Assembly: GCA_902492105.1 (NCBI GenBank)
Contig: CABUKD010000002.1
Location: 9,155 to 73,154, forward strand
Direction: 5' to 3'
DNA from: an uncultured Clostridium sp.
GTDB lineage: Bacteria; Bacillota; Clostridia; TANB77; CAG-508
DNA length: 64,000 nt
This document shows, in pieces, positions 13,527-50,624 of this stretch. Within the stretch, counting starts at the first letter, position 1, and each line of letters starts with the position of its first letter. The position numbers and the translations under genes were made by a program. The notes below the pieces were generated by a model. It ran no database searches, was not told the origin of the DNA, and saw only the letters and a list, made by a program, of their open reading frames with translations.

Positions 13527-13579
13527 ATGTTTTACCTCCAATTGGTATCTATAAAATTTACTTTATTATATAAATAAAT

Positions 13580-13609
13580 ATAGTATAGCCTATTTTATAG
13601 CTATACTAT
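13580..13609 (-). terminator. Putative terminator hairpin after the 721-aa pilin-like gene
   Basis: A 10-bp perfect stem pairs atagtatagc (13580-13589) with gctatactat (13600-13609). The trailing sequence on the minus strand is AT-rich. Confidence 0.4.
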
Positions 13610-13665
13610 ATCATATTTGTGTACATAATTACAAGGTATTTAATTAAGTTTTATGAGATTTTGTA

Positions 13666-15831: not shown

Positions 15832-15954
15832 TTCTTGTTCCCCCTAAGCTTTAGTTATTTTTAGCATTTTTCTATTTTTTATTCTTTTGATTAGTTGATT
15901 TATAAATTTTCGTTTGTATTTTTTATTTCATTATACTATTCTTTTATTTCTATG

Positions 15955-16196
15955 TAAAGAAAAAAGAAGATGAATTATGTATTTTTCCTACATAACCCAT
16001 CTTTTAAATTCTGATATTTTATATATAATTTTGGTACAACAAATAAAACTAAATATTCTTCAGTTGTTGGTTTAAAAGTTAACTCTCTCTCTCTCTCTCT
16101 CTTACTGTTTCAATACCTTCAAGCATTTTTGTTTTTTCTCCTTCGCTCTTTTCTTTTTTCTACCTCCATTATACCAATATGCATTTTATTTTTCAA
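15955..16196 (-). promoter_or_regulatory. Leader module copy 1: sigmaA promoter, leader ORF with (AG)10, intrinsic terminator
   Basis: The promoter reads, on the minus strand, TTGAAA (16196-16191), N17, TGgTATAAT (-10 at 16173-16168). The RBS GGAG (16141-16138) precedes ATG 16126-16124. The terminator pairs 16003-15989 with 15981-15967 and is followed by CUUUUUUCUUU. Positions 7 and 8 of the stem are G-U pairs only in the minus-strand RNA. Confidence 0.7.
16083..16102. repeat. (CT)10 / (AG)10 dinucleotide microsatellite
   Basis: Counted directly: 10 CT units between gttaa and tactg. Confidence 0.97.
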
Positions 16197-16277
16197 GTAA
16201 TTTTTTATGTTCCTTATGCTGATTAAAAACCTATATTACTTATGAAAATTTAATATATTCTCCCAATATATTGTTAA

Positions 16278-23016: not shown

Positions 23017-26000
23017 CTACTTCTTTTTCATAACCTTTTTCTTAATAACCACAATTCCAGCAACAAGAAGTATTCCTACTAAAATTCCAATTCCATAATA
23101 TAAGTATGCTTGTCCAAATGGTGGTAATATCACTACCTTTTCTGCTCTACTACTATCTACTTCTGTTGGAGTTTTGGTTGGATCTTGATTTCCTACTACA
23201 GAATATGCCATTCTTCTTCCTGCAGTATTAGAAGTTTGTACAATTTCGGCAATATTTTCATAGGTTTTATCATCTTGGCTGTCGCTAGTAGTAATTAATT
23301 GTGTAAGGATTAATTGTTTGCTTACTTTTTCTCCTGGTTTTAAACTATTAGATAATTGTTCTGTTTGTAAAATAGTATTATAAGAACCAATTTGTTCTGT
23401 TAAACTATTATTTACTAATCTGTCATTAATATGTGCATTATCATTATTGGTTAAGTCATTTGTATTAACTACTTTCCATCCTTCATTGTCCGTTTCTCTA
23501 TATTGTAAATTATTTGCTACATAGTCTAATACTAAGTTTGCAGTTGTAGTTACTTTACTTTCTTCAGATGCACCTGTTGCTTTGTAGTAGAAGTCTTTGC
23601 CTGTATAATCTGTTTCGCCAGCATTGGTTACTGTTAATTCATATGTAATTTGAATCGTTGCACCATGCATTAGTTCTACATCTAGTATTGGTTGGATTAA
23701 TCCGTTTTGCCCACCTTGGTATAAACTTGCAATTAATTTATCAATTTCGGTTCTGTATGAATAACGGTTGTAGTTTACATCTTCCTTACTTTCCTCATAA
23801 TATGCTTCATATTGATCTTTGTCCATTTTACTACTTAAGTCATAAGGCTTGCCAGATACCCAAATTAAGTTTGGAACTGACTTACTTGCATCAAATGCAA
23901 TGTTTCCATTAGCTAAAGTGATTTTTACATTACTTACTTTTTTGTCTAAAGTAAGCTGTGCTTTTGGTCTTTCGGTAAGTCCAAAGTCTACACAATTTAA
24001 TGTATAATTTCCATTTTTGTCATTATTGTATAAGTATTTATCTGTTCCATTACTTTGGCTATTTAAACCATCTGTATTGGTTCTGTTATATTCTCCTTCT
24101 ATTACAATAATAGCAGTTTGCGCAGTCATATGTGTATTTTGCATTAATTCTTGTACCAAGCTATTATCAATAGAAGCCATATATGGTGATGCTAAAACTT
24201 CTGCTTTATGGTTATTTACATTAGAAGTACTATAAGCATTTACATTGGTTCTACCTTGATATGTTTCGTTTTGGTAGTTAGTTTTACTATTCTGTGTTCT
24301 TCCAGTATTGATGGTTTGATTTTCCCATAAATCTTTTGCATCTGATAAGTCTGTTTTTCCATTTGCGCTTAGTTCGTCTGCTTTTTGAATATTGTAATAT
24401 TCATCTGTATAGTTTGCAATAGATTGGTTATTTTTTAGGTCTTGTTGATATACAGTTGATTTAAAGTCTTGACCATTGTAGGATACTGCATTTTTGCCAC
24501 CATTGTTAGCAGTTAAAACGGTTTCTTGGTTATTTCCATATTGAAATCTTACCACATAGTTACCTGGTATAAAGTCACTAAATTCATAATATCCCTTTTC
24601 ATTTGTCGTCGTTGTTTGCCATACATATTCTTTACCATCTTTCATGATCTCTACTAGTTCTACAGTAACTCCTGCAATTCCAATTTCGTCTTTTTGTCTA
24701 ATACCATCTCCTAAAACGGATTTGCTTATAGATTGTGTTCTTTCATCTTCCCAAGCAGTACCATTTATTTTACGAATAGCACTTTGCTCTAAGTATACTT
24801 TAATGCTTTTTGCTCTATCAGTATCATCTTCAAAGTTCTTTTCGTATTTTTCACCTTCTAAATCATCTAAGCTTAAGTTTCCTGGTGTTGAGTTATTATC
24901 GATAATTCCTGCAGGTGTTTTATTATTTTTGATTGTTTGTTTATTTGGAAGTTTTTCTCCTTCTGCATAATAGTTTTCGTAGCCATTAATTTCTGCATAA
25001 TTTTCTTTTAAACTTTGGTCGTTATCTATAATAACTGGTCCTTGATTATCTGAATTTACTTTAAATGTTAAGTAAATATAAGCATTTTCTCCTGTTGCTA
25101 GTTTTTTACCATCTAATCCACGAACATAAACTGAGTTTAGTTCTTCTTCTATATCTTGTTTAGAATCTTCTCCATAAATACTATCTCCACAGTAGTTTCC
25201 ATTTCTGTCTTCACTAATTCCATAACTACTGTTAATGTTTCTAGCATAGGCAATTTGGCTTAAATCTAAGTTATGTATCATATTATAGTAGGCTTCATCT
25301 GTAATTGCTACTTTTTCGTTGCCATCTCTATTACTATCTTTATACATTACCCAAGATAAGTCTGGCATATAGGTATAATCTTTATCATAGTAGTCTACTA
25401 CTTCTGTAATTTCATTTAGAATATTTTGTGAAGAGTTTCTAATGGTAATTTTATAAGTTACATATAATTCTAAATTACTTCCATAAAGGTTGGTATCTTC
25501 TGCTCTATATTCATAATCTGCTGGGTATAATTCTCTATTATAGTTTGTTCCATAATAGTTGTAGTAGTCTTGCATTCTGATTTGAATTTCCCAATATTTA
25601 TCATCTTCTGAACGTTTATCATATTCATATACTTCTGTTTTTCCATTAATTTTGGTTGCTGCACGATAAATATCTTTTCTTAAAGATAAATTATTTTCTT
25701 GTCTTCTCCATAAGCCGGCATTTACATAGTATTGACCATCATAAATTGGTGGTTTTGTACCTACTCCTGGAATTACCATTTTTTTATTGCCAATTACAAA
25801 GTCATCATATACAGGGTATAGGTCTATTTCTCCATCTTCAAAAGGAGAACCAGTATAAGCTTGCATTTTACAATCTTCTATAAATTGTAGTTTTTTCCAA
25901 AGTTCTTCTTTTTGCTTTGCTGTTCTTGCAAAATCATTTACAATATCTTCATAGATGTCAAGCATTGCTCTTTCATCTGGATATTCTAAATAGCGATCCA

Positions 26001-28206
26001 TATATCTTTGGATTTTTTTACTAATTTCGCCTTCTTGAATTTTGTCTGTTTCTACAATGTTGCCTTTTCTGTCGATTTTGTAAAATCCATCTATTAGTTG
26101 TACATCAGTCTGTTCATATTCTCCATCTTCGTTTAGGGTAAATCCCATTAAATCATTAATAGAAAATGTTTCATTATAGTAGTTTCTACCATCTTTTAAT
26201 AACTCTCCGCTTCTTAAAGAATTGCTAGAAATATAGTTTTTTGGTGCTGAACCAATTTCTTCAAATTGTTCATTATATTCTTCCCTTGTCATTTCTAGTT
26301 TTGTATCATTTTCCCCACCATCTTGTAATTCAGTTACTTTAGAGGTAGCTTCCCAAATTTCGGTATTATATAGTTTGGCATTATATACCATGTCTGTTAC
26401 AGAATCTTGGTGTACTAGGTTTCCATTCTTTTTTTGGTCAGTTACTAAATATTCTGTTGGTAAATAAATTTGGCCATTATATTCAAATGTGACATAATAT
26501 TTGCTTTCAGAATTTAATCCATCAAATTCATAATATCCATTTTCGTCTGTTAAGGTTGGGTTCATTCTATAAGCAATTTCTCTATCTGTTAAACTTTCTT
26601 TATCTGCTTCAGATAATAGGTCTGCTACATAACTTACTAATTTGCCATTTCTATATTGTAAATTTCCATTTTCATCTAATGGACATTCATATAAAGTAAC
26701 TTTTACATTTGGAAGTACTCTATCATTTGCCTCTCCATTATATAAATCAGAGTGAATACCATCTGCTATATTTTGTTTGGTATCTTTTACATCTTCCCAT
26801 ACATAACCACCTAAATTCATGGTGATATCTAATTTTTGGTCTCCTCCACCAGTTAAATTAATAGTTAGTTTGTATAGGTTTCTTTCTCCCCAAGCATCCA
26901 TCATAAATTGTTGTGGTACAGGATATTCTGTTACTTTCCAACGATAGTTTACGCTACAAGAAGTTAAATCTCCGTCTTTGTTATAACTATCGTGGTGTCC
27001 TGTTTCAATTGGTGTTGCTACTAATTGGTGTCCTTCTAATTCACAAGCAATAGCATAAGTAGTCATATAGGAATACTCTACACTAATGTCTATATATCTT
27101 ACTGCATCATTGCTGTCTAATACTCCTTGGTTTGGATTTTCTATTTTTAAGTAAAATTCTTGTCCACTTACTGGGTAAGATTGCTCTGTTCTATCTACAT
27201 ATCCTTCTTCTTCTAATGGTGTAAAAAAGTCTAATTTCTTTTCTTCTCCATTTTGGATATAGCTTATAATGTTAGCATCTTTAATATATTGCGTTTTATC
27301 TTTATCATTGTAACCTTTTACTGTCATGTTAGAAATTCCTGCAAATTTAGCAGTAGCAGAATTTCCTTCTACATAATCCATTTTATATGGTCCAATAATT
27401 AAGTATTGTTCTTCTTGATTTACATTGATTTGTACCTTTTCTGTTGTGGTTTCTTTAATTGGATTATCTACATTATTTTTTAGTTCTTCTTCATAATCTC
27501 TATAATCCATAGATTCTTCTTTTAATTGTTCTGCCATATCTAGATAAGTAAATTTTGCTCCACTTGCTTCAAAAGATTCTCCTCTATTTACTTCCATATT
27601 AAGCCAAATAGCTACTTGTTTTACTTCTTGGCTAATGTTTTCTCCCTTTTTAAAATAAGTAGTAGATTTTCCATATACATAGCTTCCATCTGTTGGTGCA
27701 ATAAAGTTATTTGGTGCAGTTACTGTATAAGCACCTGATGGTACTAGTTCTGTGTGATTATTGACACAAATATAATAGGTATTGGAATAACGTTTTGCAG
27801 GTAAGGAAGCTTTGTGAGAACCTGAACTTACACTACCTGTTGTTCCATCTAGTGCTTTAATAGTAGCTACTAGATTTTCGTTCATTTCTACTGATACTCC
27901 TTTTTGGATACAGTAAAGCTGAATATCTCCAATGGAAGGACAAAATACTTTATTTACTTGGCTTGGTAATGCTTCATAATAGAAACTTCCATTTTGATAA
28001 AAAGCTGGGCTATCGTGAGCACCTTGTGTAACTAGAGTTCCATCTGCTACAGAGCCATTTACTGCTAAAGCTTCTTTAGTAAGTTTTGCAACTTGTTGTA
28101 TTGGGCTTTCTTCATATTTTATCAAAGAAGAAATAGTAACAACTAATGCGACAAATAAAAGTATAAGACCCAATACGAAAAGTGTAATTTTTCTTTTACC
28201 TTTCAT
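23017..28206 (-). CDS. Giant surface adhesin, module 1 gene B: N-terminal anchor/signal, thioester-domain signature, SdrD-B/Cna-B-like and isopeptide-type domains, C-terminal sorting-like signal
   Basis: LYCIQKG (Cys99, nt 27910-27912) and VKQVAIW (Gln197, nt 27616-27618) match the YCxE/TQxA(I/V)W thioester pattern. GGYVWEDVKD...TDENGYYEFDGL and GTAWEDERT...NEKGYYEFSDFIPGNYVVRF are SdrD-B-like. The C-terminus is VVILPPFG, then a hydrophobic helix, then KKKVMKKK. Confidence 0.85.
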   Translation of the reverse strand: MKGKRKITLFVLGLILLFVALVVTISSLIKYEESPIQQVAKLTKEALAVNGSVADGTLVTQGAHDSPAFYQNGSFYYEALPSQVNKVFCPSIGDIQLYCIQKGVSVEMNENLVATIKALDGTTGSVSSGSHKASLPAKRYSNTYYICVNNHTELVPSGAYTVTAPNNFIAPTDGSYVYGKSTTYFKKGENISQEVKQVAIWLNMEVNRGESFEASGAKFTYLDMAEQLKEESMDYRDYEEELKNNVDNPIKETTTEKVQINVNQEEQYLIIGPYKMDYVEGNSATAKFAGISNMTVKGYNDKDKTQYIKDANIISYIQNGEEKKLDFFTPLEEEGYVDRTEQSYPVSGQEFYLKIENPNQGVLDSNDAVRYIDISVEYSYMTTYAIACELEGHQLVATPIETGHHDSYNKDGDLTSCSVNYRWKVTEYPVPQQFMMDAWGERNLYKLTINLTGGGDQKLDITMNLGGYVWEDVKDTKQNIADGIHSDLYNGEANDRVLPNVKVTLYECPLDENGNLQYRNGKLVSYVADLLSEADKESLTDREIAYRMNPTLTDENGYYEFDGLNSESKYYVTFEYNGQIYLPTEYLVTDQKKNGNLVHQDSVTDMVYNAKLYNTEIWEATSKVTELQDGGENDTKLEMTREEYNEQFEEIGSAPKNYISSNSLRSGELLKDGRNYYNETFSINDLMGFTLNEDGEYEQTDVQLIDGFYKIDRKGNIVETDKIQEGEISKKIQRYMDRYLEYPDERAMLDIYEDIVNDFARTAKQKEELWKKLQFIEDCKMQAYTGSPFEDGEIDLYPVYDDFVIGNKKMVIPGVGTKPPIYDGQYYVNAGLWRRQENNLSLRKDIYRAATKINGKTEVYEYDKRSEDDKYWEIQIRMQDYYNYYGTNYNRELYPADYEYRAEDTNLYGSNLELYVTYKITIRNSSQNILNEITEVVDYYDKDYTYMPDLSWVMYKDSNRDGNEKVAITDEAYYNMIHNLDLSQIAYARNINSSYGISEDRNGNYCGDSIYGEDSKQDIEEELNSVYVRGLDGKKLATGENAYIYLTFKVNSDNQGPVIIDNDQSLKENYAEINGYENYYAEGEKLPNKQTIKNNKTPAGIIDNNSTPGNLSLDDLEGEKYEKNFEDDTDRAKSIKVYLEQSAIRKINGTAWEDERTQSISKSVLGDGIRQKDEIGIAGVTVELVEIMKDGKEYVWQTTTTNEKGYYEFSDFIPGNYVVRFQYGNNQETVLTANNGGKNAVSYNGQDFKSTVYQQDLKNNQSIANYTDEYYNIQKADELSANGKTDLSDAKDLWENQTINTGRTQNSKTNYQNETYQGRTNVNAYSTSNVNNHKAEVLASPYMASIDNSLVQELMQNTHMTAQTAIIVIEGEYNRTNTDGLNSQSNGTDKYLYNNDKNGNYTLNCVDFGLTERPKAQLTLDKKVSNVKITLANGNIAFDASKSVPNLIWVSGKPYDLSSKMDKDQYEAYYEESKEDVNYNRYSYRTEIDKLIASLYQGGQNGLIQPILDVELMHGATIQITYELTVTNAGETDYTGKDFYYKATGASEESKVTTTANLVLDYVANNLQYRETDNEGWKVVNTNDLTNNDNAHINDRLVNNSLTEQIGSYNTILQTEQLSNSLKPGEKVSKQLILTQLITTSDSQDDKTYENIAEIVQTSNTAGRRMAYSVVGNQDPTKTPTEVDSSRAEKVVILPPFGQAYLYYGIGILVGILLVAGIVVIKKKVMKKK

Positions 28207-28242
28207 TTTTAATCATATTCCTTTCTTAAGGTTCAATCTTGA

Positions 28243-28272
28243 TTGAAAAAGAATTTTGTAATTCTTTTTCAA
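28243..28272 (-). promoter_or_regulatory. Intercistronic stem-loop between module 1 genes A and B
   Basis: A 12-bp perfect stem pairs ttgaaaaagaat (28243-28254) with attctttttcaa (28261-28272). No U tract follows on the minus strand. The equivalent junction of module 2 (42194-42215) has no hairpin. Confidence 0.45.
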
Positions 28273-28287
28273 CCTCTCCCTCTCCTT

Positions 28288-31200
28288 TTAATTTTCTCTC
28301 TTTTTACTTAACACATTTCTTTTAATTACTATAATTCCAATTATTAGTAAGAATAAAATTGCTAATGTTAAGCTTACATAAAGTACAATTTTTCCTGTTA
28401 CTACGGATAATACAATATCTGCTGTTGACATATCATCTTCATTTTGTGCGCTATTTGCTTCTTGAGAGTCAATATCTGTTAACCCTTGTTCGTTATAGAT
28501 TTCATAAATTTCTGCATTGTTATTTACTACAGTACCAATATTTTCATCTGTAATGGTAACACTTAAAATTAAGCTTACTTCTTTGCTTTCTCCTGGCTGA
28601 AGTTCTACATTTTCTAGGCTAGTATTATAAACACGGTCATTTTCGTCTGATAAGTACCAATCTTCGTTTAGTTCTGAACTAAATTTAGCACCTTCTGGTA
28701 AGTAATCTACTATTTTCTTTACATAGCCTGGTACTTGTCCTTCATTGGTAACTACCATTTTGTATTCTACTACAATGCTACTTTTACCAATATTTTGAGA
28801 TAGAACTTCTATTTTTTGAAGTTTTTCGTTGTTATAGTTATATACTTTTGTGCCAATGGTTGGAGTAGTTAAAGTAATTTTACTAATATATTTATCTAAT
28901 TTTAAATCAAAGTTTTGAGATTCAATTAGTCCAATGTCAATATCTCTTACATTTCCGTCTGTTACAGAAATAGTATCTGTTACACCTGCATAAGTTTGTT
29001 TTCCATTTAACATAATTTTCATTGCATATACATCTGAGTTATAACTTTGGCTAATACCTTGTTTTTGATATTCTGTTACGGTGTAACTACCTGCATCATA
29101 TAGGAAAATAACTAAATATTCATCTGGTTGTAAGCCCGTAAATTCATAACTTCCATTATCTGCTGTTGTTACTATTTTTTGACTGCCATTTTCATCTATT
29201 ACAATTTCATTATTGGATTTTTTAAGTAACATAACTTGAATACCAGATAATACTTGTTCGGTTTCCTCTCTTTGTCCATTTTTGTTACTGTCTAGCCATG
29301 CAGTACCTGTAATTTTATAAGTTCCTGATGGGGTATTTGTATTATCTCCATCATTTCCAGATTCTCCTTCATATAGTTTAGGATTGTATTCAATAATAGT
29401 ATTAATTGCGTTAGATTCTTGTTTTTGAGTTCCTTGTGCTTCTATGCTTCCTACATTAGTTACTGTTTTGTCTTGTTTATCTTCTGGTAAAAGATCTGCT
29501 TTTGCTATTACTTTTACAGTAGCTTCTGCCCCTTTTTCAAAATTAGTCCATCTTACTTTTGCAGTATTATTAAGGGTAGAGGTAACTACTTCTGTTTGTC
29601 CTTGATAGGTATATTCTAATTTTTGGAAGGTAAGTCCTTCTGGTAATACATCTTCAAAAACAACATCATTTGCGTCTGCATCCCCTGTATTTTTAATGGT
29701 AAATTCATAAGTGATTTGTTCTGCTTCTTTGATATATCTTTCAGAAGTAGTAGTTTGTGTAATTTCAAAACTTGGATTTCCTACATGATAAATTAGTTGA
29801 TTAGAATAATGTGTTTCCATTCCACTTGCTTCTGCTTTTGCTTGATATTGGAAATCTCCTTTAAAGTCTTGTATTTGAAGCTGTAGACTAATACTTTCTA
29901 AGTAACCTGCTTGTAATTGTGGGATTGTTACAATTACTTGGTTATTTTGTATTTGTATATAGTTTTGTTCTTGTCCATTACTATCTTTGTAAGTAGTGCC
30001 ATTAATTTGAATCCCTGCTGGTATGTCGATGGTTACTTTAACATTATTTAGAGTTTCTTTGCTTTCTAATAAAATAGTACTATATAGAATATCTCCTTTG
30101 TGAAGAGATGTTTCTAAATCTCTTGGAACTAATAATGTTAAATTCATTTTTGCTGCTACTTTGTTTAAAACATATTCATTAGAAGCTACACCTGTGGTAA
30201 AATCTTCTGCTGCTACTCTTACTTGATGTTTTATTTCTCCTAATGTGCCTTGATTCATTTTTAGTTCATAAGTAGCATTTGCAGTTTCTCCTACTGCTAA
30301 ATTTCCTAAAGCAATTAGTGGTTTTTCTTCGTTACTATCTACATAAGCTTGATTTGCAGAATCATATTGTGTATAAATAGTTCCTTCTGGCACAGGAACA
30401 TTAATTGTTACACTTTTTGCTTCTTCATTTCCTACATTTTTTACTTGTACAAAAAATCTAACAATTTGTCCTTCTGTTACATTACTGTTTTGTTCCATAT
30501 TGGAACTTAAGGTCACTTCTAATTCTGATCCTTGTCCTGTGGTTAAACCTAATATTGCTGATGTTTTAGTTTCTCCAATAGTTGCTGTTTGTGTTTTATT
30601 ATCATAAGATACTTGGTACATTTGGTAACAGCTGTTGTTATGTGCTAAGTTTCCTGGTAATTCTACTTTATAGCTAAACTGTAATTTTGCACCAGAGTTT
30701 ACTTCTCCAGTTACTACAATTAAATAGCTTTTCATACTAGTAAGATCTTGAGGATTTTCTTGCCATCCATTTGCTGTATTCATTAAGTCTTTATTTGCTT
30801 TTGCATTACTGCTATAATAAATCTTTATTTTGCTAGCATCTATACCAGAAGTAGTTATTTTTTCTTTTAAAAGCATAGCAAAGTTACTTCCTAGGCTTTC
30901 TTCTGTTTCAATATTGGTATTATCGGCAAATGGTAATCTTCCTAAAATCATAACATTTTCAATTGGATTACTATAATTATTTGTGATAATTCCTGTTATT
31001 GTTACTTCTTGTTTACTGCTATGAGTTGGAATGATTGCTTCTTGTTTTTGGTTGCTTATGCTAGTTAATTCAGAAGGTGTTCCGTTGTATCCTGTCATGC
31101 TGTTAGAAGCAATTACCCCTGTTGGTGCTACTAAATTAAGTTCTGTAGTAGCTACTCCTTTTTCTGCTTTAGCTTGTACTGCTCTTGCTTTACTTTGTCC

Positions 31201-33288
31201 TCCGGTATATGGGTTTTCGTAAAGATTGGTATTTTCGTTAGTGTAATACATAATAAGTTGCTCTGTTGCGGTTGTTGCAAGGTCATTTAGAGTAATATCT
31301 GTATTTAAAATAATATTAGCACCTTTTGTAATAACATTTTTTTGGGTTGTTTTTCTTATTTGTTCATCTAAGTATTTGGTTTGTGTCCCTTCTAATGTAA
31401 TTTGAATGACTTTTTTACCATTTTTTGTTACTACTTTTGCTTCTTTTAATGTTAGCTCTTTTTCTAAGAAAAGATTAACATCTTTAATTTCAATATTTTC
31501 TACTTGTTCTGGTAATTCAATTTCAAAAGTAGGATTTTTGTACAAAGCATTTTCTGTACTAGAAGTATCTAGTACAATTCTAATTTGTACATCTTTATTT
31601 TCTACTACTGTGGATAAATTTTCTTTGCCTTCTATAATAGCAATTTCTGCTTTACTAACAGGTTCTGTTAAAGAAATGCTAGTTTTTTCTGTAATTTCGG
31701 CATTTCCTGTACTTTGCATATTCTGTGCAGCTTGTGTAATCTTGTTTTGATTAGTTACTCCTAGCGTTATTTTTGAGAAAGATTCTAATTGTTCTTTTTC
31801 ATAATTTTGTATTGTTAATACCTTTTCCATGGTAATTGGTAAAATACCTTCTGTAATAGGTTTTGTAGTTGTTAGCATAACTGTATTTACTTCTGAATTT
31901 GAAAGATCTAGTGTATAGTTTTCATTTTCCTTACTAGATTCTTTATTGATGGTTCCAAGTGTAGTACCATCTTCTGAAGCAATTTGAATACTTCCGTCTT
32001 GTCCTAATAATTTTTCAAAAGCTAAAACAGGTATGGTTATATTTTTTATTTTTTCTTGGTTTCCAATTGTATATTCTTTATTATTTTCATCTACAAAAAC
32101 AGATGGCATCGTTTGCAATTGGATTTTTTCTGTTAAAGAACTATCATTTACTTGTGCATAATAGGTAGTAGTATAAGGTGTTTCTTGTTTTGTATAAAGA
32201 GTTCCTTTGCTTAAAGTTGCATTACTATTTAGGTCTATTTGTGTTAGAGTATCTTGCTTGGTTGCATTTTCTTCTATATTACTATTGGCTTCTAAAACAG
32301 TAGCATTGGTATCTGGAAGGATTGCTTTTCCATTTATGTTCATACTAACTGGAACACTATTTTCTAATGCCCATTGATAACTTTCTTCTCCTACATAAAA
32401 TAGGTTAATTACATATTGGTCTTGTCCATTTTCATTCCATGCTATCATATCATTTTCTAAATTTTGAGTACGAATGGTTAGGCTTCCACTTTCTTGGTTA
32501 TATTCATAATTTGCACTAGTAAAAGAAACACCAGTGTTATTGTTTCCAGTAGCTGTTATTTGCTTTGCAACAACAGTTACTCTTTGTGGTGCTTGTCCAT
32601 TTACTTGTGGTACTTGCATGGTAAGTTCTGTTTCAGAAATAGGCATAAGTGCTTTTGCTAGTTTACTAGTAAGGGTAGTTTGCACCATAACGCCATATTC
32701 TCCGTTTTGTATATATGGTACATAAGTTACCCCTTGTTTTGACAAAACAAGTTCATCTTCTACTTGCCAAATTACTTGATTATTCATAGTTTTACTAATT
32801 TCTTTTTCGTTTCCGTTTCCATCCACATAAGTTGCCTCAAATTCTACAGTAGATGTTTTAGAAAAATAATCAGTAGAAATAGTTTCTTGTTTTTTTATTT
32901 GAATTGGAACTTCTAATACCACTTCTTCATTTTGTTTAATTTGTTTTAAGGAAATGCTATTTTCCGTAGCACTTTGTACCTTTTCTGATTCTAATTTTTC
33001 TGTAGCAATTTCATAATTTGCATCAGAAATACGGACTATTCCCTCTTTTAAATAGCCTGCATTTTTTATTTTTAAATTGATATATAAAGTTGCTCCTTGT
33101 TCTATATTAAAATTTTTGGTATAGGTATTTCCTTCGAAATAACTATCAAATTCTACATTTTGATTGTTCGTCTTACTGTTTTGGCTTGTTAAATTTGCCG
33201 CAATTACTTGGTTCCCTAAGGTGATAAGGTTCATCCCTATGAGCATAATTATCATTAGTACAGCTAAGATTTTCTCTTTTATTTTCAT
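28288..33288 (-). CDS. Giant surface protein, module 1 gene A: signal peptide, many DUF11-like repeats, SdrD-B-like domain, isopeptide-type C-terminal domain, sorting-like signal
   Basis: The signal peptide is MKIKEKILAVLMIIMLIGMNLITLGNQVIAA. DUF11-like segments include ITYEFTIKNTGDADANDVVFEDVLPEGLTF. TGTAWLDSNKNGQRE...ADNGSYEFTGLQPDEYLV is SdrD-B-like. The C-terminus is ADIVLSVVTGK, then a TM helix, then KRNVLSKKREN. Confidence 0.85.
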   Translation of the reverse strand: MKIKEKILAVLMIIMLIGMNLITLGNQVIAANLTSQNSKTNNQNVEFDSYFEGNTYTKNFNIEQGATLYINLKIKNAGYLKEGIVRISDANYEIATEKLESEKVQSATENSISLKQIKQNEEVVLEVPIQIKKQETISTDYFSKTSTVEFEATYVDGNGNEKEISKTMNNQVIWQVEDELVLSKQGVTYVPYIQNGEYGVMVQTTLTSKLAKALMPISETELTMQVPQVNGQAPQRVTVVAKQITATGNNNTGVSFTSANYEYNQESGSLTIRTQNLENDMIAWNENGQDQYVINLFYVGEESYQWALENSVPVSMNINGKAILPDTNATVLEANSNIEENATKQDTLTQIDLNSNATLSKGTLYTKQETPYTTTYYAQVNDSSLTEKIQLQTMPSVFVDENNKEYTIGNQEKIKNITIPVLAFEKLLGQDGSIQIASEDGTTLGTINKESSKENENYTLDLSNSEVNTVMLTTTKPITEGILPITMEKVLTIQNYEKEQLESFSKITLGVTNQNKITQAAQNMQSTGNAEITEKTSISLTEPVSKAEIAIIEGKENLSTVVENKDVQIRIVLDTSSTENALYKNPTFEIELPEQVENIEIKDVNLFLEKELTLKEAKVVTKNGKKVIQITLEGTQTKYLDEQIRKTTQKNVITKGANIILNTDITLNDLATTATEQLIMYYTNENTNLYENPYTGGQSKARAVQAKAEKGVATTELNLVAPTGVIASNSMTGYNGTPSELTSISNQKQEAIIPTHSSKQEVTITGIITNNYSNPIENVMILGRLPFADNTNIETEESLGSNFAMLLKEKITTSGIDASKIKIYYSSNAKANKDLMNTANGWQENPQDLTSMKSYLIVVTGEVNSGAKLQFSYKVELPGNLAHNNSCYQMYQVSYDNKTQTATIGETKTSAILGLTTGQGSELEVTLSSNMEQNSNVTEGQIVRFFVQVKNVGNEEAKSVTINVPVPEGTIYTQYDSANQAYVDSNEEKPLIALGNLAVGETANATYELKMNQGTLGEIKHQVRVAAEDFTTGVASNEYVLNKVAAKMNLTLLVPRDLETSLHKGDILYSTILLESKETLNNVKVTIDIPAGIQINGTTYKDSNGQEQNYIQIQNNQVIVTIPQLQAGYLESISLQLQIQDFKGDFQYQAKAEASGMETHYSNQLIYHVGNPSFEITQTTTSERYIKEAEQITYEFTIKNTGDADANDVVFEDVLPEGLTFQKLEYTYQGQTEVVTSTLNNTAKVRWTNFEKGAEATVKVIAKADLLPEDKQDKTVTNVGSIEAQGTQKQESNAINTIIEYNPKLYEGESGNDGDNTNTPSGTYKITGTAWLDSNKNGQREETEQVLSGIQVMLLKKSNNEIVIDENGSQKIVTTADNGSYEFTGLQPDEYLVIFLYDAGSYTVTEYQKQGISQSYNSDVYAMKIMLNGKQTYAGVTDTISVTDGNVRDIDIGLIESQNFDLKLDKYISKITLTTPTIGTKVYNYNNEKLQKIEVLSQNIGKSSIVVEYKMVVTNEGQVPGYVKKIVDYLPEGAKFSSELNEDWYLSDENDRVYNTSLENVELQPGESKEVSLILSVTITDENIGTVVNNNAEIYEIYNEQGLTDIDSQEANSAQNEDDMSTADIVLSVVTGKIVLYVSLTLAILFLLIIGIIVIKRNVLSKKREN

Positions 33289-33320: not shown

Positions 33321-33349
33321 ATTATACGACGTTTTTCCACAATTTTCAA
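33321..33349 (-). promoter_or_regulatory. sigmaA-type promoter of giant module 1
   Basis: On the minus strand it reads TTGAAA (33349-33344), N17, TATAAT (33326-33321), about 35 nt upstream of the AGGAGG RBS and the ATG at 33288. Confidence 0.65.
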
Positions 33350-33643
33350 TGGATTTTGAAAGATTTTTCCATTTTATGTGAATTTTGTAAATTTTAGGTC
33401 TATCTATTATGTGAATTAAAATGAAAAATATAATAATAATTTGGACCTTTTTGTTACATTTATTTTTATGATAAAAGTATTTTAATTGTGAATTATACCA
33501 TTTTACCAAATTTTGTAAATTTTTTAAAATCTATTGATTTGTATTAACTTTTGTGTTAGAATATAATTAATTAAGATAAAATTTAATTTTATTTTAATTA
33601 TTGCATATAATATAAATAATATTAGTAGTCATCTATTAATATA

Positions 33644-33740
33644 GAAAGTTTACCACTGACCGATATGTGGTATATAAATGGTCGGGTTGAAAGTTTTCCG
33701 CTGACCAATATGCGGTATATAAATGGTTGGGTTGAAAGTG
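33644..33740 (+). ncRNA. Type III antitoxin RNA: 2 tandem 45-nt repeats plus a 7-nt partial third (ToxI/CptI-like)
   Basis: Repeat 1 (33644-33688) and repeat 2 (33689-33733) are identical at 40 of 45 positions. The changes at positions 12 and 25 are compensatory (ccAc...gTgg versus ccGc...gCgg). The repeats lie directly upstream of a terminator and a ToxN/AbiQ-like ORF. Confidence 0.8.
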
Positions 33741-33775
33741 GTTCTTCATCAGCATATGATGAAGAACTATCCATT
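33741..33775 (+). terminator. Rho-independent terminator between antitoxin repeats and toxin gene
   Basis: A 10-bp perfect stem pairs gttcttcatc (33741-33750) with gatgaagaac (33758-33767). The loop is 7 nt and is followed by tatccatttta. This is the canonical type III TA layout. Confidence 0.75.
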
Positions 33776-33825
33776 TTATAGCAAAACAATATATAATTAC
33801 TTTTATCATAAAGGAAGTATGTAAG

Positions 33826-34308
33826 TTGATTGAAAGAGGATTTTATATCATAAAAGATAAGTTTTTTCAAGAAATGCAAGATCCATATCTAAAAGGTAAT
33901 AAAGAAGCTAATAGACCACATTATTATTGTTTTAGAGAAGAAAAAACTGGTTTATTTTGGATGATTCCATTAAGTAGTAAAATAGATAAATATAAGAAAA
34001 TAATGAACCAAAAATTAAAAAGTGGAAAATCTTGTGATATTTTACATATTATAAGACTAGATAATGGAAAAGAAAGCGTTTTTTTAATACAGGATATGTT
34101 TCCAATTACTGAAGAATACATAGAAAGAAAATATACAATAGGTCATAATCACTTAATATTAACTAGTGAACATTCTGCAATAGAAATTGAGAAAAAAGCA
34201 AAAAAAGTAATGAATATGTTAAAAAAGGGAATTAAATTTACACCAACACAACCAGATGTCAAAAAAATAATTAGTAAACTAATAAAAAACTCAATTAATC
34301 TATTTTAA
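33826..34308 (+). CDS. Type III toxin-antitoxin system toxin, ToxN/AbiQ/CptN-like endoribonuclease
   Basis: The 160-aa ORF has a TTG start 8 nt after AAGGAAG. The N-terminus GFYIIKDKFFQEMQDPYL...WMIPLSSKIDKYKK resembles ToxN/AbiQ-family toxins. The genomic context (repeats plus terminator) is diagnostic. Confidence 0.75.
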   Translation: MIERGFYIIKDKFFQEMQDPYLKGNKEANRPHYYCFREEKTGLFWMIPLSSKIDKYKKIMNQKLKSGKSCDILHIIRLDNGKESVFLIQDMFPITEEYIERKYTIGHNHLILTSEHSAIEIEKKAKKVMNMLKKGIKFTPTQPDVKKIISKLIKNSINLF

Positions 34309-34374: not shown

Positions 34375-36186
34375 TTAGCCAACAACTTTCTTAAGTTCTG
34401 TTTGGTCAATATAATTATCTCTTTGTGCTTCTCTTAGCTTTTTCATAAATGGTAAATAGTAAGAATCATCATAGTCTACATAGTCATCTTTGGTAATACC
34501 GTAATGGTTACTAATAATAGAATTTTGGTCTTTAAAGCTTTGGTCTATGGCATTTGCAATTTCTTCATCAAATAAAATAGAAATATAATACATTGCTTTT
34601 GCATGGTCATTTAATTTATCCATAGCACAAGCATAATAGTATACTGCTTTTACCATGATTTTTTCTAGTGGATTGGATAGCATTTGTTCTGTTAAAAAGT
34701 TTAAATTTTCTAATGTTTTAGCGGCTTTGTAATATTCTTTATTTGCAATATAGCAAATAGCTAAGAAATATTTTGCTCCCATTCCCATACTTTCACAAGG
34801 AAGGATAGAAGTATCTTTTAAACTAATAAGAAGAGATAATTTTTCATATCCTACTGTATTTACAATTGTTTCCATCATTTTAGTTACTTGTGCTATATTT
34901 TGTGAATTGATATTTTCTAAATCCATTAATAGTTTTTGCATCGTAATAAAAAGAGAAAAATAAGTTGCATTAGGATCAAAAGTAGCTTCACTCATTCCAG
35001 GTACTGCAATACTGTAAGATGGAAAACCTAATATGGATACATCTCTTACTAGAATATCTTTTCCTTCTTTTAAAATGGTTTGAATAAGCTGTGTTAAAAT
35101 CGTTTTATTATCTTCATTTGATACATCTTTTATTGGAGTAAAGCTATATTGTGGTTTTTCTCCTATTACTTCATAAGGAGCTGCTGATAAATCGGTAAAT
35201 AAAAATTCTACTAGATTTTTATGAGTGTTTTGTTCTTCTCCTGCATAAAAATCAAATAAGCATCTTTGTGCATATTCGTAAATATCTCTTCCCTGGGATG
35301 CTTCTGTAAAACATCTTTCCATAGCAATTCCATAGTCTGGATGTGCTCCTAATTTGAATCCGAACTTTCCTGTATTTTTTTCTATCATATATAATCCTGC
35401 TACTGGATATTTTCCGCCTAAAGAACAATCTACTAGTCTATACCAATAGGTTGGATTTTGTTTTAACATATCTACCATTTTTTGTACTTTTGGAAATTTT
35501 GCTATATATTCTTCTGGTATTTCTGGTAAGGTAATTTTCTTTTTTAAAATTTGAAAACCTACATATCTTTCTAAAATCTCCGATAAGCCTTCTATTAAAG
35601 CTTCTTCTGGGGAGTTTCCTGCACACATTCCATTGGTGTCATAAAGATAACTAAATAGGCGGTCCGGAACATAGGTAATTTGATTGTGTTTTACACTATA
35701 ATAAGGAAGGCATGCAAATTTTTCTTTATCCACTAAAGTGGATTTTTCATTCAAAACTTCTTGAATGTAGGCTAATTGTTCTTCTTTACTACTATTTTGC
35801 TTTCCATTTGCTTCTAAAATATGTTCAAAAAAACTGTTAGGTGTTTTCATCAATTCTTCTGCATTCATATATTTTTCATCTGGAGAGTTGCTAAATGGAA
35901 TTTCTTTGGTTGGTTTTTCCATGCGAAAACGGAACATTCCATTTTGAAATCTTTCAAAAAATTCGGCATAAGCACTTGCCATAGCAAATTCTTTGGTCAT
36001 TCCTTTTCCATTTTGACCAATATCGGTTCCTTTAATACGTAAACGTAAAGAATAGGTGCCTACACTACTTGGTTTTCTCCAATCTTCTTCTACTTGAATG
36101 TCTGCTTTTTTTAATAGTTCTTTTAATTTTTTTACTGTTTCTTCTGGGGTTACTTCTTTATATCTTCTCTCTTGTAATTTACTCAT
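34375..36186 (-). CDS. YcaO-domain protein with C-terminal TPR-like region (orphan)
   Basis: GKGMTKEFAMASAYAEFFERFQN and NGMCAGNSPEEALIEGLSEILERYV are canonical YcaO ATP/Mg-binding motifs. The C-terminal ~170 aa is helical-repeat-like. The likely start is ATG 36186, with GAGGA 8 nt upstream; the track start is a GTG at 36210. Confidence 0.85.
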   Translation of the reverse strand: MSKLQERRYKEVTPEETVKKLKELLKKADIQVEEDWRKPSSVGTYSLRLRIKGTDIGQNGKGMTKEFAMASAYAEFFERFQNGMFRFRMEKPTKEIPFSNSPDEKYMNAEELMKTPNSFFEHILEANGKQNSSKEEQLAYIQEVLNEKSTLVDKEKFACLPYYSVKHNQITYVPDRLFSYLYDTNGMCAGNSPEEALIEGLSEILERYVGFQILKKKITLPEIPEEYIAKFPKVQKMVDMLKQNPTYWYRLVDCSLGGKYPVAGLYMIEKNTGKFGFKLGAHPDYGIAMERCFTEASQGRDIYEYAQRCLFDFYAGEEQNTHKNLVEFLFTDLSAAPYEVIGEKPQYSFTPIKDVSNEDNKTILTQLIQTILKEGKDILVRDVSILGFPSYSIAVPGMSEATFDPNATYFSLFITMQKLLMDLENINSQNIAQVTKMMETIVNTVGYEKLSLLISLKDTSILPCESMGMGAKYFLAICYIANKEYYKAAKTLENLNFLTEQMLSNPLEKIMVKAVYYYACAMDKLNDHAKAMYYISILFDEEIANAIDQSFKDQNSIISNHYGITKDDYVDYDDSYYLPFMKKLREAQRDNYIDQTELKKVVG

Positions 36187-36381
36187 TTGCTTATTCCTCA
36201 CTTTCTCCACTTTTATTACAAATTTATTAAATAGACAAAAATTTTCTATCTAATATAAAATATCATTTTTCGACAAAATTCACTAGAGTATTTTACAAAA
36301 AATGCTTTTTTTATTATAAACTATTTTTGTTAAATTTTTATATCGTTTTTTTATAGTTTTCTAAATTTAAATTTTTATTTT

Positions 36382-36718: not shown

Positions 36719-39700
36719 TTAGAATCTTCCCTTATTGAGTACCGTTTTCTTAATAACTACAATACTAATTCCTAACATTGCTGCGATTAACACTGCTAAA
36801 CCAATATATAGGTAAGTTGCACCAAATGGTGGTAAAATTACTACTCTTTCTGCCATACTACTGTCTGGTTCTGTTGGTGCATCTTTAGGGTTTTGGTTAC
36901 CTTGTACAGAGTATGCCATTCTTCTACCTACATCATTTGAAATTTTTACAATTTCTCCAATGTTATCATAGGTTAAATCGTCATCCTCATTTTGAGAAGT
37001 AATTAATTGTGTTAAAATTAATTGAACCTCATCTTGTGTTTCTGCACTATCTTTTGTACTTTCTGTTAATGGGATTAATTTTTCATTTAATGCTTCGGTA
37101 GTAATAATTGTGTTATAATCTTTTAATACTCCTTGTACTTCTGTATTTACATAGTTATTATTTTGAATTTCTTGTTCTGTAATAGTACTCCAATCCCATG
37201 CGTCTTGGTTACTTTGTGTTCTAAATTGTAAGTTATTTGCTACATAATCCATTACAACATCTGCTGAAGTTCTTACAATAGTTTCTGGATTATTTACTTT
37301 ACCAATGTAATAGAATTGTGTTTCGTTATAGTCTACTTCACCCATGTTAGTTACTGTTACATCATAAGTAATTTGAATAGTTGCACCATGCATTAATTCT
37401 TGGTCCATTGTAGGTTGAATTAATCCTTTTTCTTTTGTTACCAATGTATGAATTCTATCTAGTACTTTATTTCTAAACTCGTTGTAATCTTGTACTCTGT
37501 TTTCTTGATCCTTATTCGTATCTATGTCTTTATATCCTGCATAATCACTGTAAACATTTTGTCCACCATTGCGGTTTCCTTCTTGTTTATCTATATCAGT
37601 ATTAGTTTTCATTTCATTAATGTTATATGGTGTTTTTGGTTGCCATGTTAAGTTATTTACAGTTTGATTTGCATCAAATAATACAGTTTGGTTAGCTAAA
37701 GTAATTCTTACATTGTGAACTTGTTTATTTAATTCTAATCCTGCTTTTGGTCTTTCTTCTAATCCAAAGTCTACGTCTTGTAAGTAGTAATTTTGGTTGG
37801 TATTATCTTTATAGTCAATAACATTTCTATCACCTTCTGGACGGTAACCATCGTTGTTATAAGTATTATTACCAGTTGCAGCTTGTCTGTTATATTCAAA
37901 TTCCATACGGATGGCACCTGTTTCTGCTACCATTTGGGTACTACTATTTGGTGTAGTATTTTGGTTTAATGTATTTGCTTTATCATAGGTTACACCAGAA
38001 TAATTGTTACTACTGTAATTATTTACATTTTCTCTGTTTTGAGAAATTTGTTCACTACTGTAAATATCTTTTGCATCTGATACATTTATTTTGTTTCCTT
38101 TTTCATCTACAAATTCATCTGATTTAAAGATATTATATCCAAAGGTTGCTGTATCATTTTGTTTTTCATAATCTGTATAGCCGTTGTATCCAAAGTGATC
38201 TTTTCCGCTGACATCTGTTCTACCATTTTGGTCAATTGCTGTATTATTTATATGGTTGTATTGATAACTGGTTGATTTATAGTCTTGTCCATTATAGTAA
38301 GCATTACAGTCATAGGTTTGTCCATTATAGGTGTAGCTTTCGTCTCCACCATAGATAAATCTTACTACATAATCTCCTGGAATATATCCTTCAAAGTAAT
38401 AATATCCTTTTTCGTCTGTTACTGTTGCTGCATCTATCCAAGTATTAGTGTCTTTATTCCATACTTTTGCAATATTTTCTTGTGTTACACCATCTATTAC
38501 TTCATGTAATTCTACTCGAACACCGGAGATGGTTACTTCATTATCTTCTCTTACACCGTTGCCCACTAAGGCATCTGTAGTACTATTTCCGTTCATGGTA
38601 GGCGCTTGATAGTTTCTCTTATCTTCCCATACAGTACCATCTAGTTGTCTTACTAAAGAAGCATCTACATATACATTAATTCCTCTTGCTCTATCTGCAT
38701 CATCTTCGAAGTTTTGCTCGTAACGTGTAGTTCCTGCTGTATTATTTAAAGCATCTCTATCAAAGTTACCTGGGTTAGAGTCTTGGTCAATTAATCCTGC
38801 TACATCATTAGAATTTTTTCTAATGCCGTTTGGTAATTCAGTGCCATCTGCATAGTATGTCATATAACCATTAATTTCTGCTATGTTTTGTTTTCCTGGT
38901 CCGGTATTATCGTTTTCTATTACTAAATTTGAACCAACACCATTAATTTTGAAAGTTAAGTATAAGTATGCTGTTTCTCCAGTTTCTAGTTTATGGTCAC
39001 TTAAACCATTTACATATAAAGTTTTATACTCACTGCCTAAACTAAATTGTGTATTTTCTGCATACATACCTGTTGTAGTATTATATCGATTACCAAGTGT
39101 TACATCTCTATACTTTTCTTGTCCTGTTGTATCTTTGCTACCTTCATGCATAATATCGTAATATTCTTGATCTGTTACTTGTACATCTCTATTACTTACA
39201 TGATCTCCTCTGTACATTGCCCAAGATAAGTTTGGTTCAAAGGTGTAATCTGAGTCATAGTAATCTACTACTTCCTGAATTTGAGCTAAAATACTTTGAG
39301 ATTGGTTTCTAATGGTAATTTTATAGGTTATATAAGCTTCTAATTGGTTTGTTCCTGTATAATTTCTTTCTGATGGATAAATTTCTCTTGAATAGGTTTC
39401 TCCATAATAGCTTGCATAGTTTGGTCCTATAATTCTTGCTTGAATATCCCAGAATTTGTTTTCTAATTCTAATTGATAATTCAAGTATTCTACACTATCT
39501 CTACCATATTCTTTTTCTAGTCTTTTTAATTCTGCTCTTTCTTCATCTGTAATAATTTCTCTTTCGTTATATTCATAAATTTCGGTTTTGCCATTGATTT
39601 TTAAGGTTGCTTTAAATACATCTTTCTTTAGAGATACATCATATTCTTGTCTTCTCCATAGCCCTTGATTAATCATTAATTGTCCAGCATAAACATTTTT

Positions 39701-47388: not shown

Positions 47389-47416
47389 ATTGTAGCATTT
47401 TTACGAGATTTTTCAA
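47389..47416 (-). promoter_or_regulatory. sigmaA-type promoter of giant module 2
   Basis: On the minus strand it reads TTGAAA (47416-47411), N16, TGcTACAAT (-10 at 47394-47389). The position is homologous to the module 1 promoter. Confidence 0.6.
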
Positions 47417-47640
47417 TGGTAAGTTCTTTCCAAAAATGTCGAAAAATGGAAAATCCGTTACGGAAGTTGTTTTTTTGGGCGAAATATTAAATTTATATTA
47501 CAAAATAGGGCTTTTTTGTCATTTTTCTGTTAGTTTTGTTTTTAGTCTACATAATATTTTTATTTGTAATTATTTTTCATCGAATTTTATAATATTTAGT
47601 TCTTATTTTTCCTTATCTATTTACTTTTTTCTTATTTAAA

Positions 47641-48132: not shown

Positions 48133-48573
48133 ATGGCTGAAGATATGTCTGATATTTTTCAAAAAATGAATGATATGTTAAAAAATAATCAAATACCAGA
48201 AGATGTGAAAAACATGTTAAATCAGTTTACTTCTGGCTCTTCTAATAATTCTTCTTCAGATGCTTCTACTAAAAATGACACATCTTCTTCCAATGAACCT
48301 GAAAGTTCTACTAGGGAAACAAGCTCTACAGACGATAATCAGACAGAAATTCCTAATTTTGATATTGGTACTATGTTAAAAATGAAATCTATTATTGATA
48401 GTATGAATAAACAACAAAACGATCCTAGAGCTAATTTACTAAGATCTTTAAAACCATATTTAAAAAATAGTAGAAAAGAAAAAGTAGATCAATATATTAA
48501 ATTATTTAGCATGGGAAAAGTATTTGAAATGATAAATCCTCTTGGAGGAGGGGACAAGAAAAATGATGTATAG
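48133..48573 (+). CDS. Hypothetical protein with Ser/Asn-rich linker
   Basis: The 146-aa ORF has an RBS (AGAGGG). The conserved-looking C-terminus is DPRANLLRSLKPYLKNSRKEKVDQYIKLFSMGKVFEM. I do not recognise a family with confidence. Confidence 0.6.
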   Translation: MAEDMSDIFQKMNDMLKNNQIPEDVKNMLNQFTSGSSNNSSSDASTKNDTSSSNEPESSTRETSSTDDNQTEIPNFDIGTMLKMKSIIDSMNKQQNDPRANLLRSLKPYLKNSRKEKVDQYIKLFSMGKVFEMINPLGGGDKKNDV

Positions 48574-50413: not shown

Positions 50414-50624
50414 TCTTTATTCCTCCTACTTACTTCTTTATATAATTTTAATATTTAAACTAATAAAAATTGCAGTATTACCTTTATTTTTTCCATCTTT
50501 TTACTTTTTATTCTTATTCTATTAGTTTTGTATTCTTTTCTTTATTTATGTTCCTTGTTAATTGCTTTATTATTTAAAAGTTTGTTCTTAGTTTATTTCA
50601 TTATACTATTCTTTTATTTCTATG

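Follow-up and report, generated by a model that had tools for sequence, protein, structure and literature searches.

Which kind of surface structure is specified by a giant two-gene module that an uncultured Clostridium sp. carries twice? The question is raised by a stretch of 64,000 nucleotides (nt), called the window below (assembly GCA_902492105.1, contig CABUKD010000002.1, positions 9,155 to 73,154 of the forward strand), in which an earlier note had read a two-gene giant adhesin module, genes A and B, in two copies of conserved architecture but diverged sequence. This core reading was borne out by the computational analysis presented here, and it is reasonably probable that A and B are paired giant Gram-positive fibrillar surface proteins of the thioester/isopeptide/ester-domain (TIE) adhesin kind. 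Calling of open reading frames (ORFs) returned the four genes with the coordinates and sizes given before:

23017-28206, minus strand: gene B1, 1729 amino acids (aa), a head like a thioester domain (TED) on a double stem
28288-33288, minus strand: gene A1, 1666 aa, a stalk-type surface protein
36719-42193, minus strand: gene B2, 1824 aa, paralogue of B1
42216-47339, minus strand: gene A2, 1707 aa, paralogue of A1 with the same architecture

The four minus-strand ORFs form two A-to-B operons, A and B being adjacent and co-oriented in each module with a promoter upstream of A. Together they total 20,790 nt or 32.5% of the window, in agreement with the previous estimate of one third, and the two modules lie 3,430 nt apart. 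In existing records, the proteins of both families are named only 'hypothetical' or 'DUF11 domain-containing'. Both A and B start with an N-terminal hydrophobic export signal.

Protein A is a chain of about 12-13 beta-sandwich domains, laid out as a signal peptide, about eight immunoglobulin (Ig)-like domains, three CLIPPER repeats, an SdrD_B domain, a CnaA-like domain and an anchor. The parts of A1 are:

aa 1-31, minus strand: Sec signal peptide ending in VIA/A, with all-beta domains thereafter
30529-33207, minus strand, aa 28-920: Ig-like array of about 7-8 beta-sandwich domains (AlphaFold 2 model and Foldseek)
29389-30528, minus strand, aa 921-1300: three tandem CLIPPER (DUF11) repeats (Pfam, TIGR01451 and hhalign)
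28291-29331, minus strand: C-terminal stem with SdrD_B (aa ~1320-1450), a CnaA-like domain (aa ~1450-1640), the SVVTG motif, a transmembrane (TM) helix and a KR-rich tail
28393-28407, minus strand, aa 1628-1632: SVVTG motif, conserved across the A family

The DUF11/CLIPPER and SdrD_B domains that had been proposed for A were recognized by Pfam above the gathering scores. The DUF11/CLIPPER model PF01345 gave 66 bits with A1 and 43.5 bits with A2 (cut-off 24.6), and TIGR01451 gave 60 and 71 bits (cut-off 24), the two models together picking out two or three CLIPPER stretches in A. The SdrD_B model PF17210 gave 44.3 bits with A1, 63.9 with B1, 42.3 with A2 and 48.7 with B2 (cut-off 29.7). Self-comparison by hhalign of a 65-sequence A alignment resolved three CLIPPER repeats, at residues 921-1045, 1047-1170 and 1172-1300 with 95-97.5% probability, as well as a related C-terminal domain at 1507-1595 (78-87%). 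The signal peptide, the SdrD-B-like domain and the isopeptide-type domain previously assigned to gene A were retained, and the number of DUF11-like repeats, given as about ten, was reduced at the sequence level to three plus one related domain.

In residues 30-920 of A, no internal repeats were found in the hhalign self-comparison, and no Pfam match was obtained there either. The AlphaFold 2 model of A1 residues 28-920, built on a 49-sequence alignment, is all beta with about 60 strands, a predicted local distance difference test score (pLDDT) of 89.2 and a predicted template-modelling score (pTM) of 0.69. Its Foldseek neighbours are the Ig-like domains of PrgB (8BEG, E 9e-19), integrin alpha legs, alpha-2-macroglobulin MG domains and the antigen I/II protein BspA. 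The first ~900 residues of A can be assigned with confidence to an Ig-like all-beta array, as judged by the predicted fold only. Sequence searches of the PDB with A1, B1, a distant B relative (P0197, described below) and two family profiles returned nothing relevant.

Protein B combines a signal, a head (residues 40-455), a first SdrD_B domain, a first CnaA-like domain, a second SdrD_B domain, a second CnaA-like domain and an anchor. Behind the head, B1 consists of:

23137-26829, minus strand: double stem (Pfam; hhalign of A against B stem domains)
aa 460-830: first SdrD_B domain with an insert of ~210 aa, helical by sequence inspection only
aa 832-1140: first CnaA-like domain, triad K844/D938/N1069
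aa 1141-1410: second SdrD_B domain, with insert
aa 1411-1690: second CnaA-like domain, triad K1422/D1561/N1651
23020-23136, minus strand: sorting signal LPPFG (aa 1694-1698, nt 23113-23127), TM helix and tail KKKVMKKK

The SdrD_B and isopeptide-type domains expected in gene B were found, the former in two stretches above the gathering score and the latter with conserved Lys/Asp/Asn triads. In profile-profile comparison with hhalign, the SdrD_B domain of A matches both SdrD_B domains of B at 97-98%, and the last domain of A (1450-1640) matches the last domain of B (1406-1706) at 97.7% and its middle domain (828-1115) at 92.4%. By these profiles, A and B have a homologous C-terminal stem. The A triad K1466/D1528/N1590 is invariant in 65 of 65 A-B pairs, and the Lys/Asp/Asn triads of the two B domains are kept in 62-64 of the 65. 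CLIPPER and SdrD_B have been described as intramolecular isopeptide domains of fibrillar adhesin stalks (PMC12617251). The Lys-Asp-Asn order in the stem domains agrees with the CLIPPER crystal structure, and the triad-bearing domains resemble CLIPPER only remotely (hhalign 73-87%).

All A and B C-termini carry a motif followed by a hydrophobic segment and a positively charged tail. A2 ends in SVVTG, a TM helix and a K-rich tail, as B2 does in LPPFG, a TM helix and a tail. The motif of the B family is [IL]PP[FYT]G, mostly LPPFG, with LPPTG or IPPTG in some orthologues; that of the A family, [SG][LIV][VA]TG, has no model match. The tail of an LPPTG orthologue scored 14.0 against the 15.9 cut-off of TIGR01167 and reached E 2e-4 with an LPXTG family, and the B1 tail reached E 0.029. 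The A and B tails are read as LPXTG-derived tripartite signals with degenerate pentapeptides.

The statement that only the N- and C-terminal ~200 aa can be aligned between the paralogues did not hold. A1 and A2 align end to end, with 45% identity in BLASTP and 47% in a global alignment, and B1 and B2 align over nearly their full length, with 35% (BLASTP) and 43% of aligned columns (global alignment) and with large indels. Identity of A1 and A2 is 42-60% at residues 1-300 and 500-900 and 54-73% at 1300-1666, and only 18-33% at 300-400 and at 900-1300, the region of the CLIPPER repeats. In B1 and B2 the first 500 residues are the least conserved part, with 19-30% identity as opposed to 35-53% elsewhere. 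The strong divergence of the B head and of the A CLIPPER repeats suggests a different ligand or antigenic specificity of module 2. Since each module is nearer to relatives in other genomes than to its sister module, the duplication is old.

The occurrence of the gene pair was studied by scanning one genome per GTDB species with the B profile. This gave 74 loci from ~68 assemblies, all of them metagenome-assembled genomes (MAGs) of uncultured gut Clostridia from human, rabbit, mouse and roe-deer rumen, including Clostridium sp. CAG:508 and a closed chromosome of 1.70 Mb (OZ006978.1, locus L047). The carrier lineage is probably TANB77/CAG-508, as judged from the names of related MAGs only. Wherever upstream DNA is available, B has A immediately upstream of it in the same orientation, and the only two loci lacking A begin inside B. 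There are 65 distinct full-length adjacent A-B pairs with a median gap of ~19 nt, and the A-A and B-B distances are correlated (r = 0.88). A second A-B module lies no more than 10 kb away in about 20 loci, and the two often form a direct AB-AB tandem. In an A-centred check, an A homologue with 28% identity (P0085) was also followed by a B-like protein; thus, the comparison of genomes showed no independent occurrence of A or B. Among possible distant relatives, a 2870-aa protein with CLIPPER and SdrD_B domains is likewise followed by a 2892-aa partner with SdrD_B and SpaA domains.

The pair is flanked by spoIIE homologues in 55 loci and by minC/PBP2 homologues in 47. The A-B pair belongs to the core and is inherited vertically; that it is part of an island, whether mobile or gained by horizontal transfer, was ruled out by the flat GC content, 0.27-0.32 over the whole window, and by the synteny of the flanks in 47-55 loci.

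The part of the module on which its proposed function depends most directly is the head of B, for which the following features were located:

26842-28089, minus strand, aa 40-455 of B1: thioester-domain-like head (motifs, AlphaFold 2 model and profile link)
27910-27912, minus strand: Cys99 of B1, in LYCIQ
27616-27618, minus strand: codon of Gln197, which lies with Trp201 in the KQVAIW helix of B1
26911-26913, minus strand: Gln432 of B1 (PQQFM), candidate bond-forming residue
within 36719-42193, minus strand: head motifs IYCVEP, KQQAIW and MQNGV of B2

TEDs are defined by three motifs, and class II TEDs have a beta-sandwich inserted before the strand of the bond-forming Gln (PMC4450167, PMC6194298). 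Among 79 B proteins, the Cys of [YF]C[IVT][EQN] is conserved in 75, Q197 in 76, W201 in 71 and Q432 in 69; in the family motif KQxA[IV]W, Lys or Arg stands in place of the Thr of TQxx-Phi-W. The AlphaFold 2 model of B1 residues 36-470 (pLDDT 87, pTM 0.82) places the Cys at the end of a strand, QxxIW in a helix (157-167 in model numbering) and Gln432 at the start of the last strand, with ~200 residues of beta structure preceding that strand.

Profile evidence points in the same direction. Pfam TED (PF08341) was the sole family matched by more than one of 58 heads, weakly and in two of the 58 (best E 0.011). When homologues of the head profile were sought by a word-indexed search, four close fragments were all that came back, which was uninformative. 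An exhaustive search of 1.84 billion representatives with this profile found only 119 relatives, including P0197 (E 4e-9). P0197 passes Pfam TED over residues 84-168 with 30.2 bits against a gathering threshold of 22, being the sole positive after a scan of twenty distant matches. The B profile aligns with it in hhalign at 98.3% (E 1.7e-14), YCIQ falling on YCID and KQVAIW on PQLAVW. From this evidence, we are about two-thirds confident that the B head is a remodelled thioester domain.

The Cys residues of B are clustered in the head, whereas the A proteins are nearly free of Cys (a single one in A1). Among 15 homologues, His151 and Cys147 are conserved in at least 90% and Cys388 in 15 of 15. 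The B2 head has two CxxC pairs absent from B1, CPAC (aa 106-109) and CTDC (aa 405-408), and P0015, P0016 and P0197 have very Cys/His-rich inserts at the places of these pairs; the pairs and inserts may form a metal site or disulfides within the head. Three second-copy B paralogues (L008:980-5806, L060:8456-14707 and L061:11045-17467) have the head Cys replaced by Ser or Thr and the Trp of QxxIW lost, and they show no evident Gln motif further downstream. They look like 'disarmed' heads on otherwise intact proteins.

Taking these parts together, A and B would use Sec for export and the LPXTG-derived C-terminal signal for attachment to the cell surface, being either retained in the membrane or processed by a sortase encoded elsewhere. 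Intramolecular Lys-Asn isopeptide bonds would stiffen the stalks, whose reach would be tens of nanometres. A thioester between Cys99 and Gln432 of the B head could then capture a nucleophile of a ligand from the host, mucus, diet or bacteria, resulting in covalent attachment, and A, anchored beside B, could act as a non-covalent binding or spacing partner. The concentrated divergence and the recurrent tandem duplication fit a diversification of ligand or antigenic specificity.

Several results weigh against this assignment. For the head, there was no direct TED match of B1 or B2 in Pfam, even at E <= 10, or in NCBIfam (TQXA), and no TED appeared in profile searches of PDB sequences. [quoted passage not shown] The spacing from Cys99 to Gln432 is 333 residues compared with 129-204 in solved TEDs. 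Since recognition by a hidden Markov model (HMM) and a fold match were not obtained directly, the head was not classed as a confirmed TED; of the thioester-type domain earlier ascribed to gene B, the three motifs and a transitive profile link stand, and direct HMM and fold matches are missing. For the anchor, canonical LPXTG is absent from A1, A2, B1 and B2, none of which matches TIGR01167, and in the majority of B proteins the scissile Thr that sortases require is replaced by Phe. No sortase was found in the 64-kb window, where all sizeable ORFs were annotated, nor in 77 A-B loci (~1.7 Mb) by a crude scan for the TLxTC signature. Finally, the role of A as partner of B is pure inference.

Among the other readings of the locus, a pilus-like or heterodimeric fibre built by sortase was considered, in which a distant sortase would read xVTG and LPP[FTY]G and join B as thioester tip to A as shaft or base, and then to peptidoglycan. 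The obligate A-to-B pairing and the co-inheritance of the two genes suit joint assembly, and both C-terminal motifs are conserved beyond the needs of a plain membrane anchor. The tip subunit of the group A streptococcal pilus, Cpa, is itself a thioester-domain protein, and an LPPTG orthologue of B comes close to passing the LPXTG anchor model. The motifs also resemble the atypical signals of group A streptococcal pilus subunits, which include VPPTG, VVPTG, QVPTG and EVPTG (PMC7900414). Against such a fibre stand the lack of a sortase in the window and in the 77 scanned loci, when pilus sortases are normally encoded beside their substrates, as well as the Phe at the scissile position in most B proteins. 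Furthermore, a regular-expression search found no YPKN pilin motif or E-box in A1, A2, B1 or B2, and A and B, at ~185-200 kDa, each have a complete anchor of their own. ORF annotation and motif search therefore agree with the earlier note that no sortase or pilin-motif protein is encoded here, and the resemblance it drew to the shaft and tip of sortase pili is kept as an analogy only, the proteins having their own anchors and being several times the size of pilins. We regard a sortase-built fibre as unlikely.

A structural envelope component is equally unlikely. Here A and B would be a surface coat, a spacer or a scaffold associated with division or sporulation, and the conserved Cys of the head would be structural or enzymatic. 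The presence of the pair in ~68 species-level genomes of the clade, its conserved chromosomal position with the modules lying between mreBCD-PBP2-minC and spoIIE, its behaviour as a vertically inherited core locus and a head without structural neighbour among known adhesin domains would all be expected of such a component. However, CLIPPER, SdrD_B, Ig-like arrays, TED motifs and an LPXTG-derived tail are the make-up of fibrillar adhesins (PMC12617251; PMC4450167). In addition, fast divergence is focused on the distal head and the repeats, and repeated tandem duplication is typical of proteins facing a host or ligand, not of scaffolds.

It is more doubtful still that the B head is a new non-thioester fold, with the Cys serving in a Cys-His peptidase, in a transglutaminase-like enzyme or in a disulfide and with TED-like motifs that are convergent or relics. 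The lack of a Foldseek match to TEDs despite a pLDDT of 87, the lack of a direct HMM match, the additional conservation of His151, Cys147 and Cys388 and the CxxC pairs in the heads of some members speak for it. On the other hand, hhalign at 98.3% brings the motifs of the head into line with those of a protein recognized by Pfam TED, the three TED motifs occur in the right order and secondary-structure context, and the overall TIE architecture fits. Equally doubtful is a covalent A-B hetero-fibre made without a pilus sortase, by the B thioester acting on a lysine of A or of another B next to it, so that the pair self-assembles through an intermolecular isopeptide link, or by an undescribed transpeptidase reading xVTG/LPPFG, even if it would account for the inseparable genes and the conserved non-canonical sorting motifs.

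The TIE-type assignment can also be evaluated against systems already described. With TIE proteins (SfbI, CpTIE and PnTIE, and BaTIE, SaTIE and EfmTIE86 of class II), B has in common an export signal, a distal head in which [YFL]C-Phi-zeta and TQxx-Phi-W are followed by a candidate Gln motif, a stalk built from Ig-like domains of isopeptide type and a tripartite sorting signal at the C-terminus; the strand of the candidate bond-forming Gln is apparently preceded by an inserted beta-sandwich, a trait of class II TEDs. In contrast, neither Pfam TED nor NCBIfam TQXA recognizes the B head, Foldseek places none of the solved TEDs near its model, and its insert is far larger (333 aa from Cys to Gln, compared with 129-204). 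B also has K/R-Q for T-Q and LPPFG for LPXTG, is 3-6 times longer than the solved examples, and is always encoded behind a second giant protein.

The group A streptococcal pilus (Cpa, FctA, SrtC) is alike in combining a thioester-bearing protein with an Ig-like, isopeptide-stabilized partner and in its atypical LPXTG-like signals (VPPTG, VVPTG), whereas the A-B locus encodes no pilus sortase and no SipA-type chaperone, and its ~190 kDa subunits have no pilin-motif lysine and no E-box, the motif Thr being missing in most B proteins. CLIPPER (DUF11) fibrillar adhesins (PMC12617251; 9IFR) are similar in the tandem CLIPPER domains of the A stalk, in the Lys-Asp-Asn order of the A and B stems and in SdrD_B co-occurring as a CnaB-like isopeptide domain. 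However, only 3 of the ~13 A domains are recognizable as CLIPPER, and the anchor of A and B is a TM helix with a degenerate LPXTG motif, not OmpA-like or canonical LPXTG. PrgB and antigen I/II adhesins (8BEG, 5DZA), which are Gram-positive surface adhesins with tandem Ig-like domains, are the best structural neighbours of the N-terminal array of A. They have no detectable sequence similarity with A, which lacks a recognizable lectin-like or polymer-adhesin head, and the likeness does not go beyond that of generic chains of beta-sandwiches (template-modelling score 0.15-0.2).

Expression of the modules was approached through their upstream regions, where the near-consensus promoter predicted for each was supported by consensus scans and by footprinting in orthologous loci:

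33321-33349, minus strand: module 1 promoter, TTGAAA-17-TATAAT, 11/12 in the consensus scan
47389-47416, minus strand: module 2 promoter, TTGAAA-16-TGcTACAAT, 10/12 in the consensus scan, with an extended -10 TG

The -35 element is ATTGAAAA and the -10 element is CGTATAAT, or TGCTACAAT in module 2. A ribosome-binding site (RBS), AGGAGG, lies immediately 5' of the A1 ATG. Promoter matches alone mean little, since consensus-type matches are frequent in AT-rich DNA, being about twice as common in this DNA as in its shuffles. The -35, -10 and RBS of module 1 are invariant in the upstream regions of five orthologues, among them loci with just ~53% identity in the A protein, and the module 2 promoter is conserved in two loci (L058 and L077). 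Because these elements stay invariant while their flanks have drifted, upstream of orthologous A proteins only ~50% identical, both promoters are probably real and of sigma-70 type, and chance AT-rich matches were ruled out by this footprinting.

Other elements were noted around the promoters and between the genes. Two copies of an 11-nt direct repeat, AATTCACATAA, lie 33 nt apart upstream of the A1 -35 (33374-33384 and 33407-33417, minus strand); the proximal copy, 33374-33384, is invariant in five orthologous loci, and only the two closest relatives keep the distal one. A perfect inverted repeat, TCCGT-A-ACGGA (47454-47464, minus strand), is found upstream of the A2 -35 and is conserved in L077 except for one central base. 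Both repeats are possible regulator binding sites. The 81-nt gap between A1 and B1 contains an AT-rich hairpin (28243-28272, minus strand) and an RBS. The inverted repeat of this gap, TTGAAAAAGAAT-TACA-AAATTCTTTTTCAA, has no counterpart in the 22-nt gap between A2 and B2; the B2 start lies 22 nt past A2 and has a strong RBS. The hairpin could attenuate or stabilize the transcript, shifting the A:B ratio of module 1. Downstream of B1 and B2, no terminator was picked up in a simple scan.

The spacer between the modules contains two genes that do not belong to them. A stand-alone YcaO-domain gene (34375-36210, minus strand; TIGR00702, 128 bits) has no recognizable precursor peptide or partner enzyme among the annotated ORFs of the window, and it looks like an insertion particular to the species group, homologues being present in only 5 of 77 related loci. 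A toxin ORF of the CptIN family of type III systems (33826-34308, plus strand) was recognized at E 7e-53 and 178 bits (cut-off 90) and was missed by Pfam. On its 5' side lies a 45-nt tandem repeat of 2.1 copies (33644-33739), followed by a terminator-like hairpin (33738-33770) between the repeat and the toxin ORF. The repeat is likely the antitoxin RNA of a type III toxin-antitoxin locus (33644-34308, plus strand).

The surroundings of the modules are core chromosome and consist, on one flank, of mreB-mreC-mreD-PBP2-minC and two DUF285/PARCEL surface proteins and, on the other, of a TehB-like methyltransferase, spoIIE, two Big_2 proteins and a WG-repeat protein. Further predicted surface proteins are abundant at 12000-18473 and 49028-52371 (minus strand), namely the WG-repeat protein, the two paralogous Big_2 proteins of 721 and 731 aa and the two DUF285/PARCEL-repeat proteins. 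Divergent from A2, two small overlapping ORFs of 146 and 139 aa (48133-48961, plus strand) have no family match, and their homologues adjoin the A-B pair in 48 and 39 loci, respectively.

The kind of system described here, TIE-type, isopeptide-stabilized fibrillar adhesins, is already known. What is new is the obligate two-gene pairing throughout an uncultured gut lineage, the stem common to both partners, the conserved non-canonical sorting motifs without a linked sortase, and a head beyond current TED models and the PDB fold neighbourhood. The TANB77 order at high abundance has been linked to improved responses to immunotherapy against cancer, and one of its surface proteins was shown to act on dendritic cells (PMC11680825). 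The TANB77 'pilin' of that work was considered for its relevance to A and B and was set aside, as it belongs to a Tad-type pilus unrelated to these genes.

The conserved pairing, together with the non-canonical sorting signals, raises a testable question on the mode of anchoring. If the thioester works, the B head would widen the range of thioester-domain sequences and structures past current HMM detection and, as a working thioester warhead, it could allow these commensals to attach covalently to host or dietary ligands.

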